From a virus (taxonomy: Duplodnaviria > Heunggongvirae > Uroviricota > Caudoviricetes), in IMG/VR virus record IMGVR_UViG_2563366799_000006: 49,446 bases of DNA; one strand, written 5' to 3'. Both the position numbers and the translations under genes were made by a program. Shown in pieces: positions 2,167 to 37,000 of the stretch (its first letter is position 1; every line of letters begins with the position of its first letter). The notes under the pieces are model-generated. The model was not told the origin of the DNA. It saw only the letters and a program-made list of their open reading frames with translations, and did not search any database.

Positions 2167-4977
2167 TTATGCCTGAGTACGCAGCGCTTCAAGGCGGCGC
2201 AGGTCGAAGTCGTTCAGTTCGTCGGTGTAATCAGCGGTGATCGGCGCTGGCCATTCGCCAGTGTCAAAGCCGGTAGCGATAGCGCGCATCGCCTTGCGGT
2301 ACTCGAGCATGCCCAGCTCTAGCAGTTCAGCGGATGCCTCGATGATGGCGATCCAGTGGTAGTTCTCGTCTTTGTTGACGAAAATCCAGAAGAACTGGTC
2401 AAGTGCCGCGGTCTCGCAATACATGGCGGCGCTCAGGTGATAGTCACGGTCGATGATTTCCCGGTGCAGTTTGGCGCGCAGACCTTCCTGCTTAATGTTC
2501 CACATGCTGATGGTTTTAAGGTCGGCACCGATGCGTACCCCGTCCAAGTCGATCTCAAGGTCAGGACGCACGCGGACTTCAAGTCCGGTTTCGTCGTCAA
2601 AGCCAAAATAGCTCACCTCAACAGCGCGGCTCGGATGCTGAAGCAGCATCCCGGCGGTTGGGTGCTTTAGCAGGGCTTTCTGAATGGCCAGTGCGGTGCT
2701 CAGCTGCTGGCGGGTGACCAGCACTTTCCCATGCGGATTCTCGCGCCACGCATCCAACAACTCGTCGGCGAATACGGCTTCCGGATTAACAGACTTCACG
2801 GCCTGAATCAGGTCTGATTTGGTACCGGACACTTTCAGTGGTTGGGGCTTCTGCGCCTCCTGTGCAACCAAGTCAGGATTGATGATTGCCAGCTGCTCGA
2901 GCAGCGCGTCACGGCTACCGCTGGTTTTCACCTGCGGCGGCAGGGTGGCGTTGTACTCTTTGATGCAGGCTTTCATCGCCGCTGCGGTCTGCTTCTGGTC
3001 CGCTTCGATCCGCTGGTACTCTTCTGGCAGCGACATGTAGCTCTGGCCAGTTTCCTCGACTGAACCACCCAGTGGCACCTGAGCAGGCAGTGTGGCGTTG
3101 TATTCTTCCAACAACGCTTTGATGTCGTCGGCGCTCAATTGCGCTGGCAGGCTGGCGTTGTACTCATCGATAAACGCGCGGATTGTTGCCGTTGTGGTGA
3201 ACGCGCCTTCCGGGATCATCGGTTCAACGCTGAACTCTTCATCAAGCTGCTCTGGCTGCAACGCAAGGCCGTGCACCAGGTTACCCATGTCCAGTACCGG
3301 AGAACGCTCTTTGGTGATCGTTTTGGCAACGTGGCGCGCATTGAAGTACATCAGCGATACACGCGCATCTTTCACCTGGGTTGAGCTGATACCGTTCGCT
3401 GCGTGATAAACCTCGTTCGGCAACCCTTCATAGCGGCCTGGCTCAAAGTAAGCAGGGTAAACAACAGCCGGTTCGTCAGAATGAGATTCTGGCTCGGTTT
3501 GTGCCGCAACTGGTTCAGTTTGGTTTACAGAATCGCTGTTTTGGCTAACAGAATCCGCATTCTGGTTTACATCGGCCTGCTGGCCGGTATGTGACTCTTC
3601 ACCAGTTTCCAGACTGCTTTCTCCTGACTGCACTTCATCACCAGCCTGTTCTTCATCACTGACAGTTTCTTCCATCTGCACATTGCTGGTGGTTTCCTCA
3701 TTAAGTGGTGAACGGTCATCTGTTTGTGTTTGTTGATCACCCATCAGGCCATCAATGGAGAATACGCCGTTGCCCATGTTGGCGATTTGTGGCTGTTTAG
3801 CAGCTGTTTTCTGCTCTGCAGCGACCTGCTCATTAAACTCATTTTCCCAACTGACGTCCGGCGCATGACCAGCATCAGCCAGCGTTTCTTCTGAGGGGTT
3901 TGAGTGGTCATTTTCGGTTAGATTGGCATTGATATATGCCCGCAACCGCCCAGGAAAGTTAACCAATTCGGATGATGTGCCGCGGATGAGTGCAAAGATG
4001 GCGGCGCGTGAATAGTCCAGGATGCCAGCGGTTTTGCGCAGCGCCTCAGACCATTCGCTGAACGGACTTTCTTTCTTGCTGACAATCTCTTTAGCGCGGC
4101 GGTAGACCCCACCAGGTATGTCGTAGATATTGAAATCCATTGGCAAGGTGGCCAGCGCAATTTCAACATCCAGAGTGTCCAGTGTGTGGACGTAGTCGGT
4201 ATTGCGATCGGTCTTATTTCCACCGCCAGCATTGGTTTTGACGTCAGTGCGTTGAATCTGCACAACACGGTTGCCTTTCTGCCATTCCTTGACCAGCAGG
4301 CCACGGTCGATGTAATCAGTGTTGAACCACACCGTCAGGAACTGGATAACTGTTGCCAGTTCCGGTTTTTTACCGTCGACAGGGAAGGCTTTCTTAACGG
4401 CATTCACGACTTTATGGATATCGTGCTCAATGGCTTTTTTGAATGCTTCCACATTCTCAGCAGCCAGCAGCAGGTTTTGGGCGTACGCGTTATCAGTGTC
4501 CATCTCAAGGCGGACAATCTCGTTTTTCTGACCAGCGTCGACGTGATAGAGATATTCACCATCACCGATGAACTGAGCCAGTACGCGCTGACGGAATGGC
4601 AGGGTGGCAACGACGATCAGGTTCGGCTGCTCTGACTGCTGAGATTCTTCTGCGGTGCTGTCTTCAGTATCCGCGTCGTCGACAGACTCATCTTCAGCCT
4701 GTTGTTTAACATTCCAGGTGCGCTGGTCTTCAGCCAGTTCGTAACGATCGCACCATGTGAAATCAACTTCGCCTTCTTCTGGCAGGTCGTTGTACACCGG
4801 GAAATCAGTGCGAATAGGTTTGGCGTAGTCCTTACCACGGCCGGTTTCGATGCCTGCATCTTCCAGTGCAACATCCAGCTGCAGGTTGGCGCGAGCCTCG
4901 GTTTTCGCAGTGAACCAGACCACTGCATCTTGTTTTCCGGATTTCTGAGTGGCTTTAACCACATTAAAGAATTCCAT
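2167..4977 (-). CDS. recE: RecE-like exonuclease VIII (C-terminal PD-(D/E)xK nuclease domain, acidic linker, internal repeats)
   Basis: 936-aa ORF; C-terminal region has RPD...GADLK, a PD-(D/E)xK-like motif; long D/E/S/Q-rich low-complexity linker; three copies of an EYNA(S/T)LP(A/P)QV peptide motif; immediately upstream of recT. Confidence 0.7.
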   Translation of the reverse strand: MEFFNVVKATQKSGKQDAVVWFTAKTEARANLQLDVALEDAGIETGRGKDYAKPIRTDFPVYNDLPEEGEVDFTWCDRYELAEDQRTWNVKQQAEDESVDDADTEDSTAEESQQSEQPNLIVVATLPFRQRVLAQFIGDGEYLYHVDAGQKNEIVRLEMDTDNAYAQNLLLAAENVEAFKKAIEHDIHKVVNAVKKAFPVDGKKPELATVIQFLTVWFNTDYIDRGLLVKEWQKGNRVVQIQRTDVKTNAGGGNKTDRNTDYVHTLDTLDVEIALATLPMDFNIYDIPGGVYRRAKEIVSKKESPFSEWSEALRKTAGILDYSRAAIFALIRGTSSELVNFPGRLRAYINANLTENDHSNPSEETLADAGHAPDVSWENEFNEQVAAEQKTAAKQPQIANMGNGVFSIDGLMGDQQTQTDDRSPLNEETTSNVQMEETVSDEEQAGDEVQSGESSLETGEESHTGQQADVNQNADSVSQNSDSVNQTEPVAAQTEPESHSDEPAVVYPAYFEPGRYEGLPNEVYHAANGISSTQVKDARVSLMYFNARHVAKTITKERSPVLDMGNLVHGLALQPEQLDEEFSVEPMIPEGAFTTTATIRAFIDEYNASLPAQLSADDIKALLEEYNATLPAQVPLGGSVEETGQSYMSLPEEYQRIEADQKQTAAAMKACIKEYNATLPPQVKTSGSRDALLEQLAIINPDLVAQEAQKPQPLKVSGTKSDLIQAVKSVNPEAVFADELLDAWRENPHGKVLVTRQQLSTALAIQKALLKHPTAGMLLQHPSRAVEVSYFGFDDETGLEVRVRPDLEIDLDGVRIGADLKTISMWNIKQEGLRAKLHREIIDRDYHLSAAMYCETAALDQFFWIFVNKDENYHWIAIIEASAELLELGMLEYRKAMRAIATGFDTGEWPAPITADYTDELNDFDLRRLEALRTQA
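2931..3178. repeat. Three imperfect direct repeats (~22-bp core GGCAGGNTGGCGTTGTAYTC) inside recE
   Basis: Copies at about 2931-2969, 3080-3118 and 3140-3178 on the + strand; they encode the repeated EYNA(S/T)LP(A/P)QV motif. Confidence 0.6.
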
Positions 4978-5116
4978 GTGAGATCCTCATTTTTGGGTGT
5001 TAGAATCCCCGGGCCATTGATAGCGCCCATTGGGTTAACTTTGGTTTTGATGTTGTTTCCGGTGTAACTTTGGTCGGTGCCACCGGACGTAGATCCCGCC
5101 TTGCGCGGGGTGTACG

Positions 5117-5289: not shown

Positions 5290-5655
5290 TTAATGGCTGA
5301 GGCCATTCCCCAGACCGTTCAGATAAACTTCAACCAGCAAATCCCTGGTGTAAGTCATCTCAACGCCGCGATGCAGATACAAACGACCACGAGCATTGGC
5401 TGATGCCGTCCAGGTTGAATCCTTGTGTTTGACGAGCATCCCCGGCTGAACTGCGCCGCGGTTTACTGTCTGTGTACCGTAGTGCTGATGAACCATGATG
5501 TTCTCCACTATTGCTGAGTGAACTTCGCTGGTGGTGCCGTGGTGCTGATCTTCACAGTTGAGCGTTTTAACTCTGCAGTTCACCACCGCGAAACCCACTC
5601 TTATGTGCCTGTCTTTTATCCACTTCAGGCTCGGTGGTATGCTGGTAGTTCTCAC
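5290..5655 (-). CDS. Hypothetical early protein (Kil-position); a shorter 5290..5496 form has a better RBS
   Basis: ORF-track 121-aa form uses a GTG with no RBS; internal ATG at 5494-5496 is preceded by a GGAGA RBS. Confidence 0.4.
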   Translation of the reverse strand: MRTTSIPPSLKWIKDRHIRVGFAVVNCRVKTLNCEDQHHGTTSEVHSAIVENIMVHQHYGTQTVNRGAVQPGMLVKHKDSTWTASANARGRLYLHRGVEMTYTRDLLVEVYLNGLGNGLSH

Positions 5656-5675
5656 ACAGCCAGCAAGGAATAACT

Positions 5676-5969
5676 ATGAAATCAGTAACTAAGCCATGTC
5701 CTATTTGTGGTGAAGATTCTTTGTCTTTTAACCAGACAAATCAGTTGGTTAACATCAAAGTAAAACCACCAACTATTCGTGAAGTTCCATCAGTGGTTTA
5801 CGTTTGCGATACTCACGGATGGTTTTCACTTTCAGAACAGATAAACAGACTCGTCACATCTAATGACGACCCTGCGGCTAAGCAAAAACTGGCTGTTATT
5901 GTCAAAGAGCGATATGTGCCGGAACAGGATCAGCCGTTAGCCCTGAAACCTATTGAGTCGCTCGCATAA
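5676..5969 (+). CDS. Hypothetical zinc-ribbon protein (CPICG...C.THG)
   Basis: 97-aa ORF with AAGGA RBS; rightward gene inside the leftward early region; 3' end overlaps the 3' end of 5950..6219 by 20 bp. Confidence 0.5.
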   Translation: MKSVTKPCPICGEDSLSFNQTNQLVNIKVKPPTIREVPSVVYVCDTHGWFSLSEQINRLVTSNDDPAAKQKLAVIVKERYVPEQDQPLALKPIESLA

Positions 5970-6219
5970 GGTCTTTTCGGCTCTCGCTGCGATATCCCAG
6001 GCGGTACATTTTCACGTAGGCTTTGCCGCGAGGAATGCCGCCTGTTTTGTTGAATCTCTGCTGGGCGCGGCGATGGTGTTTTGCTTCAGGGCTGTTTGAA
6101 CCTTTCCCGCCATTCGATCGAGAACTTGGGAGTTGCATTGGCTTTTGGCGTGAATAGAATTTACGTGCCCAGCATGCTCCAAAGCCGATCATGCCTGTTT
6201 TCTTCGTATTACCTTTCAT
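5950..6219 (-). CDS. Small basic protein, first ORF downstream of the putative PL (N-like antiterminator candidate by position only)
   Basis: 89-aa ORF, GAGGGG RBS, Arg/Lys-rich; lies about 70 nt downstream of the predicted PL start. Confidence 0.4.
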   Translation of the reverse strand: MKGNTKKTGMIGFGACWARKFYSRQKPMQLPSSRSNGGKGSNSPEAKHHRRAQQRFNKTGGIPRGKAYVKMYRLGYRSESRKDLMRATQ

Positions 6220-6298
6220 CTCAATCCCCTCGTTTGCCCTTGTCGCCAGGCCAGCGGAACGTTTGAACTTGATGCGCTTAGTGTTTCTCGATGGGGTG

Positions 6299-6340
6299 AT
6301 GATAGCTAAGGCGATTTATTTTATCAATCGCTTAAACGAT
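6299..6340 (-). promoter_or_regulatory. Putative PL promoter with overlapping OL operator
   Basis: Minus strand reads TTGATA (6322-6327), 17-nt spacer, TATCAT (6299-6304); palindrome ATCGC-TTAA-ACGAT at 6327-6340 matches the OR operator consensus ATCGC-N4-GCGAT. Confidence 0.45.
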
Positions 6341-6663: not shown

Positions 6664-6686
6664 GAAAACCGGCATAATGCCGGTTT
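6664..6686 (-). terminator. Hairpin terminator at the end of the cI operon
   Basis: Inverted repeat AACCGGCA-taa-TGCCGGTT followed by a T-rich run on the minus strand, overlapping the stop of 6685..7317. Confidence 0.45.
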
Positions 6687-7317
6687 ACTTTGATTTTTCC
6701 TGTTGGTGAAGTACTCGTGGAGTAGTTGGTTCTTGAGGTAATTGGATGATAACAGGTTGCTGCGCTACTGGTTGAACTACGGGCGGATCACTCTTCAAGG
6801 CAGAAACAAGACTAGGTAATGCAACGACAACCGCAATGATAACGCCAAAAATAGCAAGCCTAGTGGAAATACCTGATTGAATACCGCCAATCGCAGTGTT
6901 TATTCCTGTAATTTGCCCTTGTATACCTTCGAATTTGCCATTGATGGCTTTTACATCCCCATCAACGCTATCCATTTTCCCTTCAATTTTAGAAGAAATA
7001 GAGCTAATAGATGAATTGAGCGATGCCAGCTGAACGTTCATATTCTCGCGTGACAAAGCCATTTCAGCTCTAATCGAAGATGCAATGGACTCCATCTCCG
7101 CCTTATTGGCAGCTAGAAGTGCTTGCATTTCTTCACGGCTAACTGATGACATTTCATTTCCCCCATCAGTTTCATTAGCTTCATCTGTTGATTTGATAAA
7201 GTTAGTATACATTTCTTCTTTATCGACGCGTAGTCTGTTTTGAACATTGGGGTACAGGTCATCTTTATCAATGCCAGAACCGCAGTCTGGGACAGCTTTG
7301 AGAGATGGGCCCATCAC
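6685..7317 (-). CDS. Coiled-coil protein with a single C-terminal transmembrane helix (rexB/sieB position, no recognised family)
   Basis: 210-aa ORF; long heptad-like Ser/Ile/Gly-rich region then hydrophobic segment LAIFGVIIAVVVALPSLVSAL; start overlaps the stop of 7314..7700 (ATGA). Confidence 0.6.
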   Translation of the reverse strand: MMGPSLKAVPDCGSGIDKDDLYPNVQNRLRVDKEEMYTNFIKSTDEANETDGGNEMSSVSREEMQALLAANKAEMESIASSIRAEMALSRENMNVQLASLNSSISSISSKIEGKMDSVDGDVKAINGKFEGIQGQITGINTAIGGIQSGISTRLAIFGVIIAVVVALPSLVSALKSDPPVVQPVAQQPVIIQLPQEPTTPRVLHQQEKSK

Positions 7318-7700
7318 TTCCCATCCTCTCCTTGATCTTCTTTTCTTTTATTAATCAGTGTCCTGGCTTTTTTATAAGAAAAAAGCAGTACATGTGCGCA
7401 GTGATCACACGTGATTCGAAATAGTGGCATACCGCCAGGATATGTCACAGCACTATCAGTATCAGGTTTGTATTGTGCATAACTAAGTGTTTCGATCACA
7501 TGATGTTTTGGCTGATTTTCTTCTACATCAAGATCAAAGGCACCAACTACAGACCATGACTGGTTCCCGCAGATTTGGCAAGTTATTGGTTTTTTGAATG
7601 AATTTATGAAATCAATGAACTCATCCGCTGTGATAATCTCGGAGTTTGCTTCACTATGAAATAATTCCGATTTCATAATTATGATCCTTTTCTGGGCCAA
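7314..7700 (-). CDS. Zinc-ribbon-like protein (CQIC...CDHC), first gene downstream of cI (rexA position, no recognised family)
   Basis: ORF-track 128 aa; likely start is the ATG at 7674-7676 (120 aa) with AAGGA RBS; 20 bp downstream of the cI stop, same strand. Confidence 0.6.
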   Translation of the reverse strand: MAQKRIIIMKSELFHSEANSEIITADEFIDFINSFKKPITCQICGNQSWSVVGAFDLDVEENQPKHHVIETLSYAQYKPDTDSAVTYPGGMPLFRITCDHCAHVLLFSYKKARTLINKRKEDQGEDGK

Positions 7701-7720: not shown

Positions 7721-8404
7721 TTACAATCGGTTATACTTTATTGATTCATGAATCAATGCCTTACCCATTACGTAGAGTTGATCCTGATTACCTTCGTTAA
7801 TGTACCACTTCTCATAAGCTGAGTTATCAGACAAAACTGCCAACCTATCGCCCTGCATCTGCAAGCGCTTCACATGGAAATGTTGTCCGAAAACGAACGC
7901 ATAAACACCGTCGACCTTGAAGTTTCTTACAGAAATATCGAAAAACAATCTGTCACCAGACTGTATAGTTGGACACATGCTGTCGCCATCGACCGTCATT
8001 ACTTTTACGTCTTCCTGAGAACGATTTCCGAAGAGTGAACGAGCGTGTTCGGTTGTGAACTCAATGGCGTGTAGAACCTCAACAAACTCAGAAATCATGA
8101 AAGAACCTGGCCCCGCGCTAAATGTCAGGTCAAGTACGTCAACTCTGAATATGTTTGAGTCTTTTTTTGTCGCGGTAATGGGAGGCGGTAGCTGGCCATC
8201 GTTACGCATCGGTCCGGATCCCGTGGAAAGCCATTCAGGGCGAACATTGAGAACAGAAGCTATCTCGACCGTTTTTCTTGAGCTTGATGCACCATTTAGC
8301 AGCTTGTTAACACTTGACTGTGCCATGCCAACTGCCTTAGCTAGCTTGCCCTGTGTATAACCCGCCTCATTCATTGCGCGATCTAATCGCTCAGAAAAAC
8401 TCAT
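7721..8404 (-). CDS. cI: CI-type prophage repressor (XRE HTH + S24 LexA-like peptidase)
   Basis: 227 aa; N-terminal HTH (QGKLAKAVGMAQSSVNKL); Ala-Gly cleavage site (FSAGPG); Ser in GDSM and Lys in HVKRL; divergent from cro. Confidence 0.9.
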   Translation of the reverse strand: MSFSERLDRAMNEAGYTQGKLAKAVGMAQSSVNKLLNGASSSRKTVEIASVLNVRPEWLSTGSGPMRNDGQLPPPITATKKDSNIFRVDVLDLTFSAGPGSFMISEFVEVLHAIEFTTEHARSLFGNRSQEDVKVMTVDGDSMCPTIQSGDRLFFDISVRNFKVDGVYAFVFGQHFHVKRLQMQGDRLAVLSDNSAYEKWYINEGNQDQLYVMGKALIHESIKYNRL

Positions 8405-8437: not shown

Positions 8438-8506
8438 ATCGCCACAGCGATTAATAAGCAAAAAATCGCATAGGCGATTGACATTCGTTAAAGCGATAAA
8501 CATAAT
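8438..8506 (+). promoter_or_regulatory. OR operators and PR promoter
   Basis: Palindromes ATCGC-CACA-GCGAT (8438-8451) and ATCGC-ATAG-GCGAT (8466-8478); TTGACA at 8478-8483, 17-nt spacer, CATAAT at 8501-8506; AGGAG RBS and cro ATG follow. Confidence 0.6.
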
Positions 8507-28786: not shown

Positions 28787-29926
28787 ATGGCAGGCAATAC
28801 CCTTACTGGTCTGATCCCGACCATCTATACCGCGCTGGACGTAGTGTCCCGCGAGCAAACTGGTTTTATTCCTGCGGTGGCGCGTGACGCGAAAGCGGAT
28901 GCTGCTGCAAAAGACCAGACCGTACGTGCGCCAGTCGCACCTGCAGCCACTACTGAAGATATTGTCCCTGGTCCGTCAGCACCTAATTCTGGCGACCAGA
29001 CCATCGGTGGTGTGGATGTCAAAATCACCAAATCCAAGATGGCCCCGGTCAAATGGAATGGTGAAGAGCAATTGGCTTTGGGCCCGGCTGGTACCTACAA
29101 CACCATCCTGGCTGACCAGTTCAAGCAGGCTTTCCGAGCGCTGGCGAATGAAGTGGATGCAGACCTCGCTGCGCTGTACCTCAACTCCTCCCGCGCTGTT
29201 GGCGTGCCGAAGAATACCCCGTTCAGCATCAAAGACGATCTGACTGATGCTGCGTTGGCGCGTCAAATCCTGACCGATAACGGTGCGCCGACTACTGATT
29301 TGCGTATGGTGCTGGGTGGCGAAGCGATGGCATCCATCCGTGGTAAACAGGCTGTACTCTTCAAAGCGAACGAAGCGGGAACCGACCAGCTGCTGCGTGA
29401 AGGTGTTATCGGTCGCATCATGGGCTTCAACCTCCACGAATCCTTCAGCATCAAGCGTACCGCGAAAAGCGCTGCTGCTGGCTATAAGGTCAATGGCGAG
29501 AAGAAAGAGGGCGATATCATCATCGCTATCTCTGCCGGCACCGGCGGTATTGCTGCAGGTACTGCGGTGAAGTTCGCTGGTGATGACAATCAGTATCTGG
29601 TTGTTGCGGCTACGTCTTCCACTATCACCATCAGCGCGCCGGGGCTCCGTCAGGATCTGGCAGACCAGGCTGATGTCACTGTGTTGAGCGAATTTGTACC
29701 GAACATGGCGTTTGACCGCGGGGCATTCCTGCTGGCCAGCCGTACCCCGGCGATGCCTGAAGGTGGCGATACTGCTGATGACGTCATGAATGTGACCGAC
29801 CCGGTATCTGGCATCACCTTCCAGGTGGCGCTGTACCGCCAGTACCGTCAGGTGCGTTATGAAGTGGGCCTAGCATGGGGTGTGGCTGCTGTGGCGCCAC
29901 GTCATTCCGCCATCATCATGGGTTAA
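28787..29926 (+). CDS. Major capsid protein
   Basis: 379 aa; AGGAG RBS; follows scaffold; hairpin terminator downstream. Confidence 0.7.
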   Translation: MAGNTLTGLIPTIYTALDVVSREQTGFIPAVARDAKADAAAKDQTVRAPVAPAATTEDIVPGPSAPNSGDQTIGGVDVKITKSKMAPVKWNGEEQLALGPAGTYNTILADQFKQAFRALANEVDADLAALYLNSSRAVGVPKNTPFSIKDDLTDAALARQILTDNGAPTTDLRMVLGGEAMASIRGKQAVLFKANEAGTDQLLREGVIGRIMGFNLHESFSIKRTAKSAAAGYKVNGEKKEGDIIIAISAGTGGIAAGTAVKFAGDDNQYLVVAATSSTITISAPGLRQDLADQADVTVLSEFVPNMAFDRGAFLLASRTPAMPEGGDTADDVMNVTDPVSGITFQVALYRQYRQVRYEVGLAWGVAAVAPRHSAIIMG

Positions 29927-34059: not shown

Positions 34060-37000
34060 TGACAGACCAGATCGCCTCGATTACTTTGCGGGCCGATGTT
34101 TCTGACCTGAAAACAGCCAGCAACGAACTGGATAAACTCGGCCAGGCGGCGGCCGGTGCTGTAGATAAAGCGGATGATTTAAATAGCGTGTTCCGCGCTG
34201 GGGCTGAATCTGCGAAGCAAGGCAGCGAAGGACTCAAGGAGCAGCAGAACGCGCTCAAAGGGCTGCTGGAGAATATCGACCCGGTTACCAAGGCCTTAAA
34301 CCGCCTGGATGAGCAGCAAGAATCGCTGCGGAAATTCCAGGCCAAAGGTTTCCTGGATACCGATACCTTTCAGGCATACAACAAAATCCTGGATGACACC
34401 CGCCTCAAGCTGACCGACACCGGAGAAGCCGCGGCGCGTGCTCAGGCCGAATTAGCCGCTACCCAGGCGGCAGAGAAGCAGTCCGCAGCGTTAAAGAACC
34501 TTCTTGGATCCATCGACCCGACTATCCGCGCGTTCAATTCGTTGGATGAACAGCACGCACAGCTGGTGGAACATTTCGAAGCTGGGCGCATTAACGGTGC
34601 TCAGTTCGAGCACTTCAACACAATCCTTAACCAGACGCGTGAGCGCCTCTCTGGTGTCGCTGACGTACTACCAGAGGCGCTATCCCGGCAGGAAGCTGCT
34701 GCCCGGCGCGCTGGAATCTCCGTTGGTCAGTACAGCGCAGCAATGCGCACGCTTCCGGCGCAATTCACCGATATCGCCACGCAGCTGGCTGGCGGTCAGT
34801 CGCCGTTCCTGATTCTGCTGCAACAGGGCGGGCAGATTAAAGACCAGTTCGGCTCGGTTCAGGGGGCGCTGTCCGGCGTCGGCGAATACATCCGCAGCAT
34901 GGCTGGGATGATTAACCCTACCACAATCGCACTTGGTGGGCTGATTGGCACGATCGGCCTGCTGGCTGCCGCAGCGTATAACTCCTCGGAGCAATTTGAG
35001 CAGGTGGCACGCTCTGTCATCATGATGGGTGGGGCTGGCTTCTCCTCAATGCAGCAGCTCAACCAGGCCGCTGAGGAAGTGGCTGGCAAGACGAATACAT
35101 CGATTAGCTCCACCGTCGATACGCTGGTTACGTTGAACGATACTGGCAAATATACCGCAAGCCAGATGAAGCAGGTCGCAACGACCATCACCCTCATGGG
35201 TAAGGCCGGAAATGATACCAAAGCGGCAATAAGCGACTTCGGAAAGATTGTCAGCGATCCGGTTAAAGGGCTTGCCAGCCTCAATGAACAATATGGTTTC
35301 GTTGATGAAGCCATGATCAAGCACATTATCCAGCTACGTAAGCAGAAGGGTGAGCAGGCGGCTGTTACCGAAGCTATTGAGCTGTTTGCAGGCGTCATGG
35401 CAAAGCGCGCAGAGGAGACCAACAAAGCGACCGATAATATCGGTCAAACGTGGGAAAACCTTAAAAAGAGCGCTTCTGACACCTTTGGCGATATAGGTAT
35501 TACCGTGCGCGCATGGGGAAACCAGATCATTGATATTTTCGAACTGGTTAAATCCTCGATCAAAGACTTGTTCCTCAATATCACCTCTCTGGACGCCAAG
35601 TTCACCAGCACCATCGCTGGCTGGGCAGACAAAATCCCGGGTGGCGGTGCGCTGGCTAATTTCCTCGGCATGGACGTTGAGGCAATGAAAAAGGCTGGAG
35701 CGGAGGCGGACAAAGAGATTGAGGCGAACAAAAAACGCTATAACGAGCTTTGGAAGCGCGTCACTGCGCCTAACGCACAGGCAAACTATGAGGCTGAAGC
35801 GCGAGGGTCTAACGTAAAAGGTGATGGAGGAACAAGTCGAGAATCAAGAGACGCAGTCTCGAAGCTTGCACAAGACTCAGCCAAAAAGACCAAAGAGGCA
35901 AAAGCCACGCTGGATGCTGGCGATCGCACTCTTGAGAACTACCGCGCCCAGGCCAGAACGTTAACTGAAACACTCGAAACGTTGCGCAAGACTGGGGAGA
36001 CTCAGGTCAGATATACCGAGTTCAGCAAACAGCAATCCCATTTTGCCGAGCTGGACGAGGCTGCTAAGACCCGCGCGCTGACCGCACAGGAGAAATCTCT
36101 TCTATCGAACCGAGAGGCCATCCTCAACGCCGCCAAAGTTGTGGATCAGAAAAATAAGGAAGTCGAGGCCCAGCAGAAGATTAACGGCCTGGCGCAGCAG
36201 GCAAATAAGTATGTTACGCAGATGACTGAAAAGTCTGAGGCATTGCGTAGCGGGGCTGGGTTAAGTAGTCGCATGGCCCAGCGAATGACCGAAGAGGCGC
36301 AGCTTCGGCAGGGCTGGCTAAATGGCGGTGGTAATCTAGAGGATGCTGGCTACGAGAAAGAGCTGGCAGCTCTTCGTAACTACTACGCCGAAGAGGATAA
36401 GCTACGGGGTGACTGGAAAGCAGGGGCAGTTAGTGGCTGGAATGAATATCTTGAGGCCGCCACGAATACCTATGACGCCGTGAAGAACGTCGCCAGCTCC
36501 ACGCTGACCGGCTTGAGCGACATGCTGACTGAGCTGATGATCACTGGCAAAGCATCAGTTAAAGAATTCGGTAAATCCATGCTCAAGATGATCCTGGATG
36601 TTACGAACCGCCTCATGGTTGCCTACGCAGTGCAGGCCGCAATGGGATGGGTAAACGGAGGGGCAGGAGGTGGCAACACACCCGGTGGAGCATACGCGAA
36701 CGCTGCTGCAGGCGTAACGTTCAACGCTAAAGGCGGAGTCTATGAATCGCCGGGCCTAAGCAAGTATGTGAATGGCGTCTACGATTCTCCTCAGTACTTC
36801 ACGTTCCAGGGGGCATCTAAGTTTGCGAAAGGGGGGGTCTTTGGAGAGGCAGGGCCGGAAGCTATTATGCCGTTAGCTAAAGATTCAGCAGGGCGGTTGG
36901 GTGTACGCGCCCAAGGAGGTGGAAGTATTGCTCCTGTAATTAATACCGTCATTAATGTTGAGGCTAATGGTAATGTATCAACCAGCACATCGTCGGATGG

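Follow-up and report, generated by a model that had tools for sequence, protein, structure and literature searches.

Two converging genes in the early-left region

Two short genes face each other in the early-left region of IMG/VR virus record IMGVR_UViG_2563366799_000006 (Caudoviricetes), of which the whole stretch of 49,446 nucleotides, referred to here as the window, was analysed. The rightward open reading frame (ORF; 5676..5969, plus strand) begins with ATG, encodes a zinc-ribbon protein of 97 residues, and possesses a Shine-Dalgarno sequence, AAGGA, at 5665-5669. The leftward ORF (5950..6219, minus strand) likewise begins with ATG, encodes a very basic protein of 89 residues, and is preceded by the Shine-Dalgarno sequence GAGGGG at 6231-6226. 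As proposed in the initial annotation of this DNA, the two converge and overlap at their 3' ends, where 20 bp (5950..5969) are coding on both strands. Together they constitute an optional cassette of about 630 bp (5602..6230).

Both ORFs are genes under purifying selection. They give full-length matches to two PHROG families of unknown function, phrog_31519 (E 1.7e-60) and phrog_29236 (E 1.5e-56), and the Prokaryotic Genome Annotation Pipeline (PGAP) calls both of them, as hypothetical proteins, in E. coli MSB1_9D. The profile search of both proteins, which had been suggested for distinguishing an N-like antiterminator from other families, thus led to families of unknown function and to neither an N-like antiterminator nor any other family of known function. 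In informative pairs, with the overlap excluded, the ratio of nonsynonymous to synonymous substitution (dN/dS) is 0.06-0.3 for both genes, with a proportion of synonymous differences (pS) of 0.4-0.8, so that synonymous sites are near-saturated. Identity at the three codon positions (0.77/0.85/0.51 and 0.85/0.79/0.54 for the two ORFs) reveals a divergence biased to the third position, and mean pairwise identity reaches 0.90 within the overlap (5950..5969) versus 0.71-0.73 for the remainder of both genes. It might still be argued that one of the two is a chance opposite-strand frame or an annotation artefact, considering that both are short and neither has a characterised homologue. However, the overlap amounts to only 20 bp, so neither ORF can be the shadow of the other, and the third-position bias and low dN/dS are accompanied by a conserved start codon and ribosome-binding site and by a protein length conserved across Enterobacteriaceae; we consider the artefact explanation extremely improbable.

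The assignment of the rightward product as a zinc-ribbon protein was borne out. The protein is a zinc ribbon of the Cys2-Cys-His/Asp type, with invariant C8-P-I-C11 and C44-x-x-H47-G-W-F, in which H47 becomes Asp in one subfamily. Its AlphaFold model is confident (predicted local distance difference test, pLDDT, 91) and displays a sheet of four strands, which two zinc knuckles close, and after it two helices. The family comprises 22 clusters at 90% identity, found in Enterobacteriaceae only and nearly all equal in length. When its alignment profile was run against 1.8 billion representative proteins, only 4 related clusters and one repeat protein were recovered. The latter (P0058, 523 residues) contains six YICDYFGW copies matching profile residues 38-60 (E 6.6e-5); the likeness is probably confined to the motif, in a protein otherwise unrelated. 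The zinc-ribbon domain has a distant relative (hhalign probability 90%, E 1.5e-6) in a 91-residue protein that occupies the same slot in another locus (L070).

Searches for families of known function were negative throughout. Neither protein matched any family at a meaningful score in Pfam, NCBIfam or PADLOC, nor any PADLOC-DB 2.0 component model at E <= 1, and among 50,697 phage records tblastn returned no match to either. A PDB sequence profile search returned nothing significant, and Foldseek, for which only the confident zinc-ribbon model was used, found nothing significant in PDB or BFVD (E > 0.07). A CarD/Mfd-like lead for this protein was weak. The Lar restriction alleviation family was considered and rejected. 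Like Lar and Ral, the zinc-ribbon protein is a small phage protein of the early-left region, and it has a weak N-terminal CPxCG match (PF14354, E 0.03; TIGR03655, E 0.023). Nevertheless, residues 5-25 alone match, i.e., only the first zinc knuckle aligns, and the score of 15 bits is about half the cut-off or less (28.6 and 39.6). Inside the gene, a minus-strand hairpin that resembles a terminator (5851-5869) lacks conservation and probably arose by chance.

The leftward product contains 22 lysines and arginines versus 3 aspartates and glutamates (pI 11.5). Because its model is poor (pLDDT 58), the basic protein is probably disordered on its own. Its family, also limited to Enterobacteriaceae and nearly uniform in length, comprises 32-44 clusters at 90% identity.

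The cassette is dispensable cargo, since alignment shows it to be absent from otherwise near-identical E. coli prophages; the two relatives that lack it have flanks 95-100% identical to those of the window. Among 5426 complete E. coli genomes it occurs in only 2. All 16 examined loci with either gene, which span E. coli, Citrobacter, Klebsiella-type, Atlantibacter, Kosakonia, Phytobacter and Pantoea, carry both genes in convergent orientation, and no gene was found alone. The overlap measures 20 bp in most of them and 56-68 bp where the usual stop of the basic ORF gives way to one further downstream; in one degraded Pantoea copy the two genes are separated, with no overlap. The pairing persists even in L019/L020, which with about 35-40% protein identity is the most divergent pair found. 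Irrespective of the immunity or repressor type, the cassette always has variable cargo beside the repressor on one side and the kil/ydaE/recE genes on the other. In three loci (L011-L013), the zinc-ribbon protein retains 34-42% identity while its basic partner retains 71-78%. This faster divergence would fit an arms race or an exclusion role, though it does not prove one.

Such strict co-occurrence would also be expected of an addiction pair resembling toxin–antitoxin (TA) systems, in which the basic protein would be a nucleic-acid-binding toxin made from leaky transcription of the leftward early promoter, PL, and a constitutively produced zinc-ribbon protein would neutralise it in the lysogen. 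The very basic, probably disordered nature of the former and a converging layout that leads to reciprocal expression are compatible with this idea, and Rac-type prophages do carry toxic early genes, for example kil and ralR. On the other hand, no toxin or antitoxin family is matched by either protein, the known protein-protein TA pairs form operons whose genes point the same way, and the zinc-ribbon partner can be swapped for a 34-42% identical version while the basic protein stays 71-78% identical. We therefore regard an addiction pair as improbable. As for the established classes, a type II module was rejected because the pair is not a co-directional operon with a recognisable toxin or antitoxin fold, and a type I system (antisense RNA plus small hydrophobic peptide) because both partners are conserved proteins under purifying selection and neither is hydrophobic.

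Conserved elements on both sides of the cassette

To the right of the pair lies a PL-like promoter (6327..6299, minus strand) composed of TTGATA (6327-6322), a 17-nt spacer and TATCAT (6304-6299). It is bracketed by two copies of an operator-like palindrome, ATCGC-N4-GCGAT (6302-6315 and 6327-6340). Two more copies of the palindrome (8438-8451 and 8465-8478) lie at PR/PRM, in the interval from the cI-like to the cro-like gene. Given this promoter with its operator-like palindromes upstream, the basic ORF is the first ORF of the early-left transcript, in agreement with its earlier description as the first gene after PL.

Between promoter and gene there is a conserved PL-leader element, ACGTTCCGCYRGCC(N)GGCGAYAAGG(G)CA (6235..6262, minus strand), which forms the right flank of the cargo site. 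It stands directly upstream of the first leftward gene in several different cassettes (loci L002, L003, L024, L056, L071, L088 and others) and is retained in relatives without the cassette. In the 49-kb window it occurs as one copy, even with 3 mismatches allowed. The stem of the element (CGCYR-GCC-YGGCG) alternates C-G/A-T pairs with T.G/G.T pairs on the leftward strand, a variation compatible with the formation of an RNA hairpin by the PL transcript.

A basic gene in this position, behind a conserved leader that contains a hairpin, invites comparison with the antiterminators lambda N and P22 gene 24. It could be a divergent N-like antiterminator that carries PL transcription to recET, the rightward gene being incidental. 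The basic protein resembles lambda N and the P22 gene 24 product in lying directly after PL and its operator, in being similarly small, basic and probably disordered, and in having a basic helix around residues 44-58. It differs from them in sequence and in profile: hhalign gives a probability of 0.1% against both lambda N and P22 gp24, and the protein, which starts MKGNTKKTGM..., has no N-terminal arginine-rich motif. The locus furthermore lacks a nutL/nutR pair, as the single-copy PL-leader element has no nutR counterpart, and near-identical sister prophages do without the basic gene while they retain the leader and the downstream operon. The gene is thus dispensable cargo rather than part of a core regulatory circuit present in sister genomes. 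The suggestion of an N-like antiterminator, raised in the initial annotation, is accordingly abandoned as very unlikely.

On the left side, the 70 bases before the rightward ORF are far more conserved than the genes themselves, and are nearly invariant even in L019/L020. Their invariant core (5607..5637, plus strand) consists of hairpin 1, GCCTG-N14-CAGGC (5607-5630), followed by TCGGTGG (5631-5637). Lambda has an identical 31-nt stretch at 34397-34427, shortly before sieB, and the core recurs exactly in 12 other loci. The whole sieB-type element occupies 5607..5665 in the window, 34397-34456 in lambda (1398-1457 of L017), 29650-29709 in P22 (L023), and approximately 6562-6625 of L018 in the Rac prophage of K-12, where hairpin 1 has a compensated stem, GCCCGG/CCGGGC. 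By blastn, the element was recovered from 140 phage records, among which are lambda, P22, ST104, HK620, SfII, Klebsiella phages and an Aeromonas phage. Scanning viral contigs yielded 143 instances, of which 98 are distinct. In P22, 29650-29684 adjoins the annotated sieB promoter (29690..29720), whose annotated RNA start is at 29727. Rfam has no family at the element.

The second part of this bipartite element, hairpin 2 (TGCTGG-N14-CCAGCA, 5640..5665), abuts the Shine-Dalgarno sequence of the zinc-ribbon gene. Defined as an inverted repeat of 5-8 bp with an 11-17-nt loop directly after TCGGTGG, it varies in sequence but its two arms stay complementary. Perfect pairing distinguishes 21 stem variants, and 27 are counted if one wobble or mismatch is allowed, all in the same position (TTCTCG/CGAGAA, TACTGG/CCAGTA, TCTTGG/CCAAGA and TCCTTTTA/TAAAAGGA, among others), and at least 5 perfect pairs are present in 75 of 82 distinct sequences. 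Covariation was examined by comparison with chimeras built from different stem classes and with shuffles, because the MAFFT alignment was out of register between classes. At least 5 perfect pairs were formed by 76% of 21 class representatives, whereas the proportion was 19% among the chimeras and 12% among the shuffles. When folded as a single sequence, the element was no more stable than shuffles, whichever strand was used, and hence the case for hairpin 2 rests on covariation rather than on energy. Counts of G.T versus C.A (wobble) pairs gave no indication of which strand folds.

According to the placement of promoter-like sequences, the elements fall into two classes. In class A (lambda, P22, Rac), the promoter, of the type mapped in P22, follows hairpin 2. 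In class B, which includes the window, TGG+TATNCT overlaps the 5' arm of hairpin 2, the Shine-Dalgarno sequence abuts the 3' arm, and the start codon lies 28-35 nt past the hexamer. Irrespective of the stem sequence, 58 distinct class B elements retain TGG+TATNCT, with positions 1, 2, 3 and 6 partly fixed by the class definition itself; the variant CATACT in L019 keeps A2 and T6. From this pattern, a rightward promoter is predicted at 5616..5643 (plus strand), with a -35-like TTATCC (5616-5621), a 16-nt spacer and an extended -10, TGgTATGCT (5635-5643), whose TG is at 5635-5636 and whose hexamer is at 5638-5643.

Divergent promoters had been envisaged in the interval 5497-5675. Only 5607..5675 has the conserved element with its promoter-like extended -10; no leftward promoter was found in 5497..5601, a stretch that is common to relatives without the cassette. 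In the Rac prophage of K-12, an annotated small RNA, kilS (6406..6503 of L018, minus strand), lies between kilR and the sieB-type element, and the corresponding comparison with 5497..5601 of the window reveals short motifs alone in common.

The sieB slot as an exchangeable cargo site

A rightward gene set within the leftward early operon was initially thought to be unusual. With its convergence on the first PL gene, it in fact represents the canonical sieB arrangement, as the placement of sieB in three well-known genomes demonstrates. In lambda, sieB (34482..35036, plus strand) abuts N (35037..35438, minus strand); in P22, sieB converges on gene 24; and in the Rac prophage of K-12, sieB overlaps ydaF by 4 bp, between kilR and racR. 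The zinc-ribbon gene shares with them its location between the first PL gene and the ral/kil region, its orientation, and the way in which it converges on that gene or overlaps it. The overlap is ordinary for the sieB slot.

The differences concern the cargo and the details of its expression. SieB is a membrane protein of 160-190 residues, and the zinc-ribbon protein, with 97 residues and a soluble model made of a sheet and two helices, is unrelated to it; identity with SieB was rejected, as no SieB family of Pfam, PHROG or NCBIfam is matched. The predicted extended -10 of the window overlaps hairpin 2 (class B), whereas the mapped P22 promoter lies downstream of it (class A). Moreover, unlike the sieB/esc system, the zinc-ribbon gene has no internal in-frame Esc product and instead always has a separate leftward basic gene attached.

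Behind the upstream element, rightward ORFs of at least 26 unrelated families were found, with SieB the largest (29 instances) and the zinc-ribbon family the second (16). Most of these families have a convergent leftward partner with a 3' overlap of 4-83 bp. With the sieB-type element on the left, the PL leader on the right and varied cargo between, the slot is an exchangeable-cargo site with conserved flanks. Phage morons are known for having their own promoter and for representing variable cargo between conserved flanks. The cassette resembles them in being optional, in lying between conserved flanks and in belonging to a site with a large variety of cargo; it differs in that its cargo is fixed, consisting of two convergent genes that no terminator separates, and in that its left flank, a bipartite element with a covarying hairpin, is more than a promoter.

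A site of this kind raises the question of whether the two genes are functionally independent, the basic gene being an interchangeable first PL gene and the zinc-ribbon gene an unrelated moron, held together by their overlap and by the recombination flanks. Some leftward first-PL-gene families at this slot (partner families 2 and 4) do pair with many different rightward genes, the conserved flanks could mediate cassette exchange, and in L070 a zinc-ribbon relative is found without the basic gene. Yet among the element-associated loci, no leftward family other than the basic one accompanies the zinc-ribbon family, even at the greatest divergence sampled (L019/L020), and neither gene occurs without the other in the 16 loci examined. 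Independence of the two genes is, in our judgement, unlikely.

Another type of pair was observed at the same site in L024 (Klebsiella phage 5 LV-2017), where 2572..2802 (plus strand) and 2575..2883 (minus strand) overlap almost fully. The rightward ORF, behind a class B element, encodes a CxxC...CxxC protein of 76 residues, and the leftward ORF, behind the PL leader and a ribosome-binding site, one of 102 residues. The same overlapping pair is present in L034, L048, L055, L078 and L081. It is either a fully antisense gene pair, or else one of the frames is spurious.

The wider surroundings of the window pair are those of a Rac-like lambdoid prophage, with RecE, YdaE and KilR-like genes on the left and, on the right, a LexA/cI-type repressor (7721..8404, minus strand) followed by a cro/YdaS-like gene, YdaT and the O/P replication genes. 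The rexA/rexB position, downstream of the repressor, is occupied by two genes (6685..7317 and 7314..7700, both on the minus strand), which encode a 210-residue coiled-coil protein with a C-terminal membrane anchor (phrog_5820) and a 128-residue CxxC...CxxC zinc-ribbon protein (phrog_4293). Both are probably prophage-expressed cargo. In other loci this position is taken by HipA-like kinases, a protein kinase, an SDH-type protease or ASCH proteins. Between recE and ydaE, 5019..5114 (plus strand) has a sub-threshold Rfam match to the Hfq-binding small RNA isrB (27 bits versus a gathering threshold of 35, E 0.058).

A possible lysogen-expressed gene with an early partner

In P22, sieB is among the genes expressed from the prophage (PMC10461980). 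Position, orientation and upstream element being the same, a prophage-expressed accessory role would be expected for the zinc-ribbon gene as well. The reading that we prefer, and to which we give roughly an even chance, is that the cassette of about 630 bp is an accessory (moron) cassette in the sieB slot of a Rac-like PL operon, in which a zinc-ribbon gene expressed in the lysogen is coupled with an early basic partner.

Under this accessory-cassette reading, the zinc-ribbon gene would be transcribed from the extended -10 promoter in the element, as sieB is, while PL is repressed. Upon induction or infection, the basic protein would be the first product translated from the PL transcript. Because the two genes converge and overlap, and because PL transcription must cross the cassette on its way to kil and recET, transcripts extending to kil, ydaE, recE and recT would be antisense to the zinc-ribbon mRNA over its entire length, ribosome-binding site included. 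Firing of PL would thus shut off the zinc-ribbon gene by collision and antisense pairing, at the same time as the basic protein is synthesized. There is a precedent in P22, where, according to the passage of PMC7067206 that cites Ranade and Poteete 1993, translation of sieB is switched by the antisense RNA sas. The antisense interference predicted in the initial annotation is therefore built into the layout, in that PL transcription has to traverse the entire rightward gene, and by analogy with what that passage relates of sieB and sas its occurrence is plausible. By further analogy with SieB, Esc and sas, the zinc-ribbon protein may be an exclusion or defence-type factor of the lysogen, and the basic protein may be the early partner of the phage, either an Esc-like escape factor or a co-effector.

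Several observations weigh against this proposal. Neither protein has a link, by homology or by fold, to a defence, exclusion or anti-defence family, and the zinc-ribbon protein is a soluble one with no relation to SieB. The relative in L070 adjoins a YdaF-like gene in place of the basic gene. The two proteins have no obvious co-divergence in L011-L013, which weakly disfavours a tight physical partnership. The predicted rightward promoter was not reported by a standard two-hexamer promoter scan, and it is placed differently from the mapped sieB promoter of P22, which lies downstream of hairpin 2. Expression of the zinc-ribbon gene in the lysogen is, moreover, something that we infer from sequence and position.

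A bolder extension would make the bipartite element and the PL leader a general cargo-exchange site of lambdoid phages, with hairpins that act on the PL RNA, as an antisense module in the manner of sas or as a processing module, to silence any rightward lysogeny gene placed there once the phage turns lytic, and would make the pair described here a new two-protein exclusion-and-escape system. We consider this extension speculative and, as a whole, unlikely to be correct.

What is new in the cassette is its cargo proteins, which are uncharacterised, and its architecture is a variant of a known one. Since two strictly paired families occupy the classic sieB position, they are candidates for a new exclusion or defence function with a self-escape partner. 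Beyond the pair, the sequence upstream of sieB in lambda and P22 emerges as an element that is both portable and very highly conserved; at least 26 unrelated cargo genes are served by it, and its hairpin 2 is kept by compensatory changes. The hotspots of P2 and P4 have already been mined for defence and counter-defence genes. The upstream element and the PL leader, taken together, mark a searchable cargo hotspot of lambdoid prophages that could be mined for such genes in the same way.
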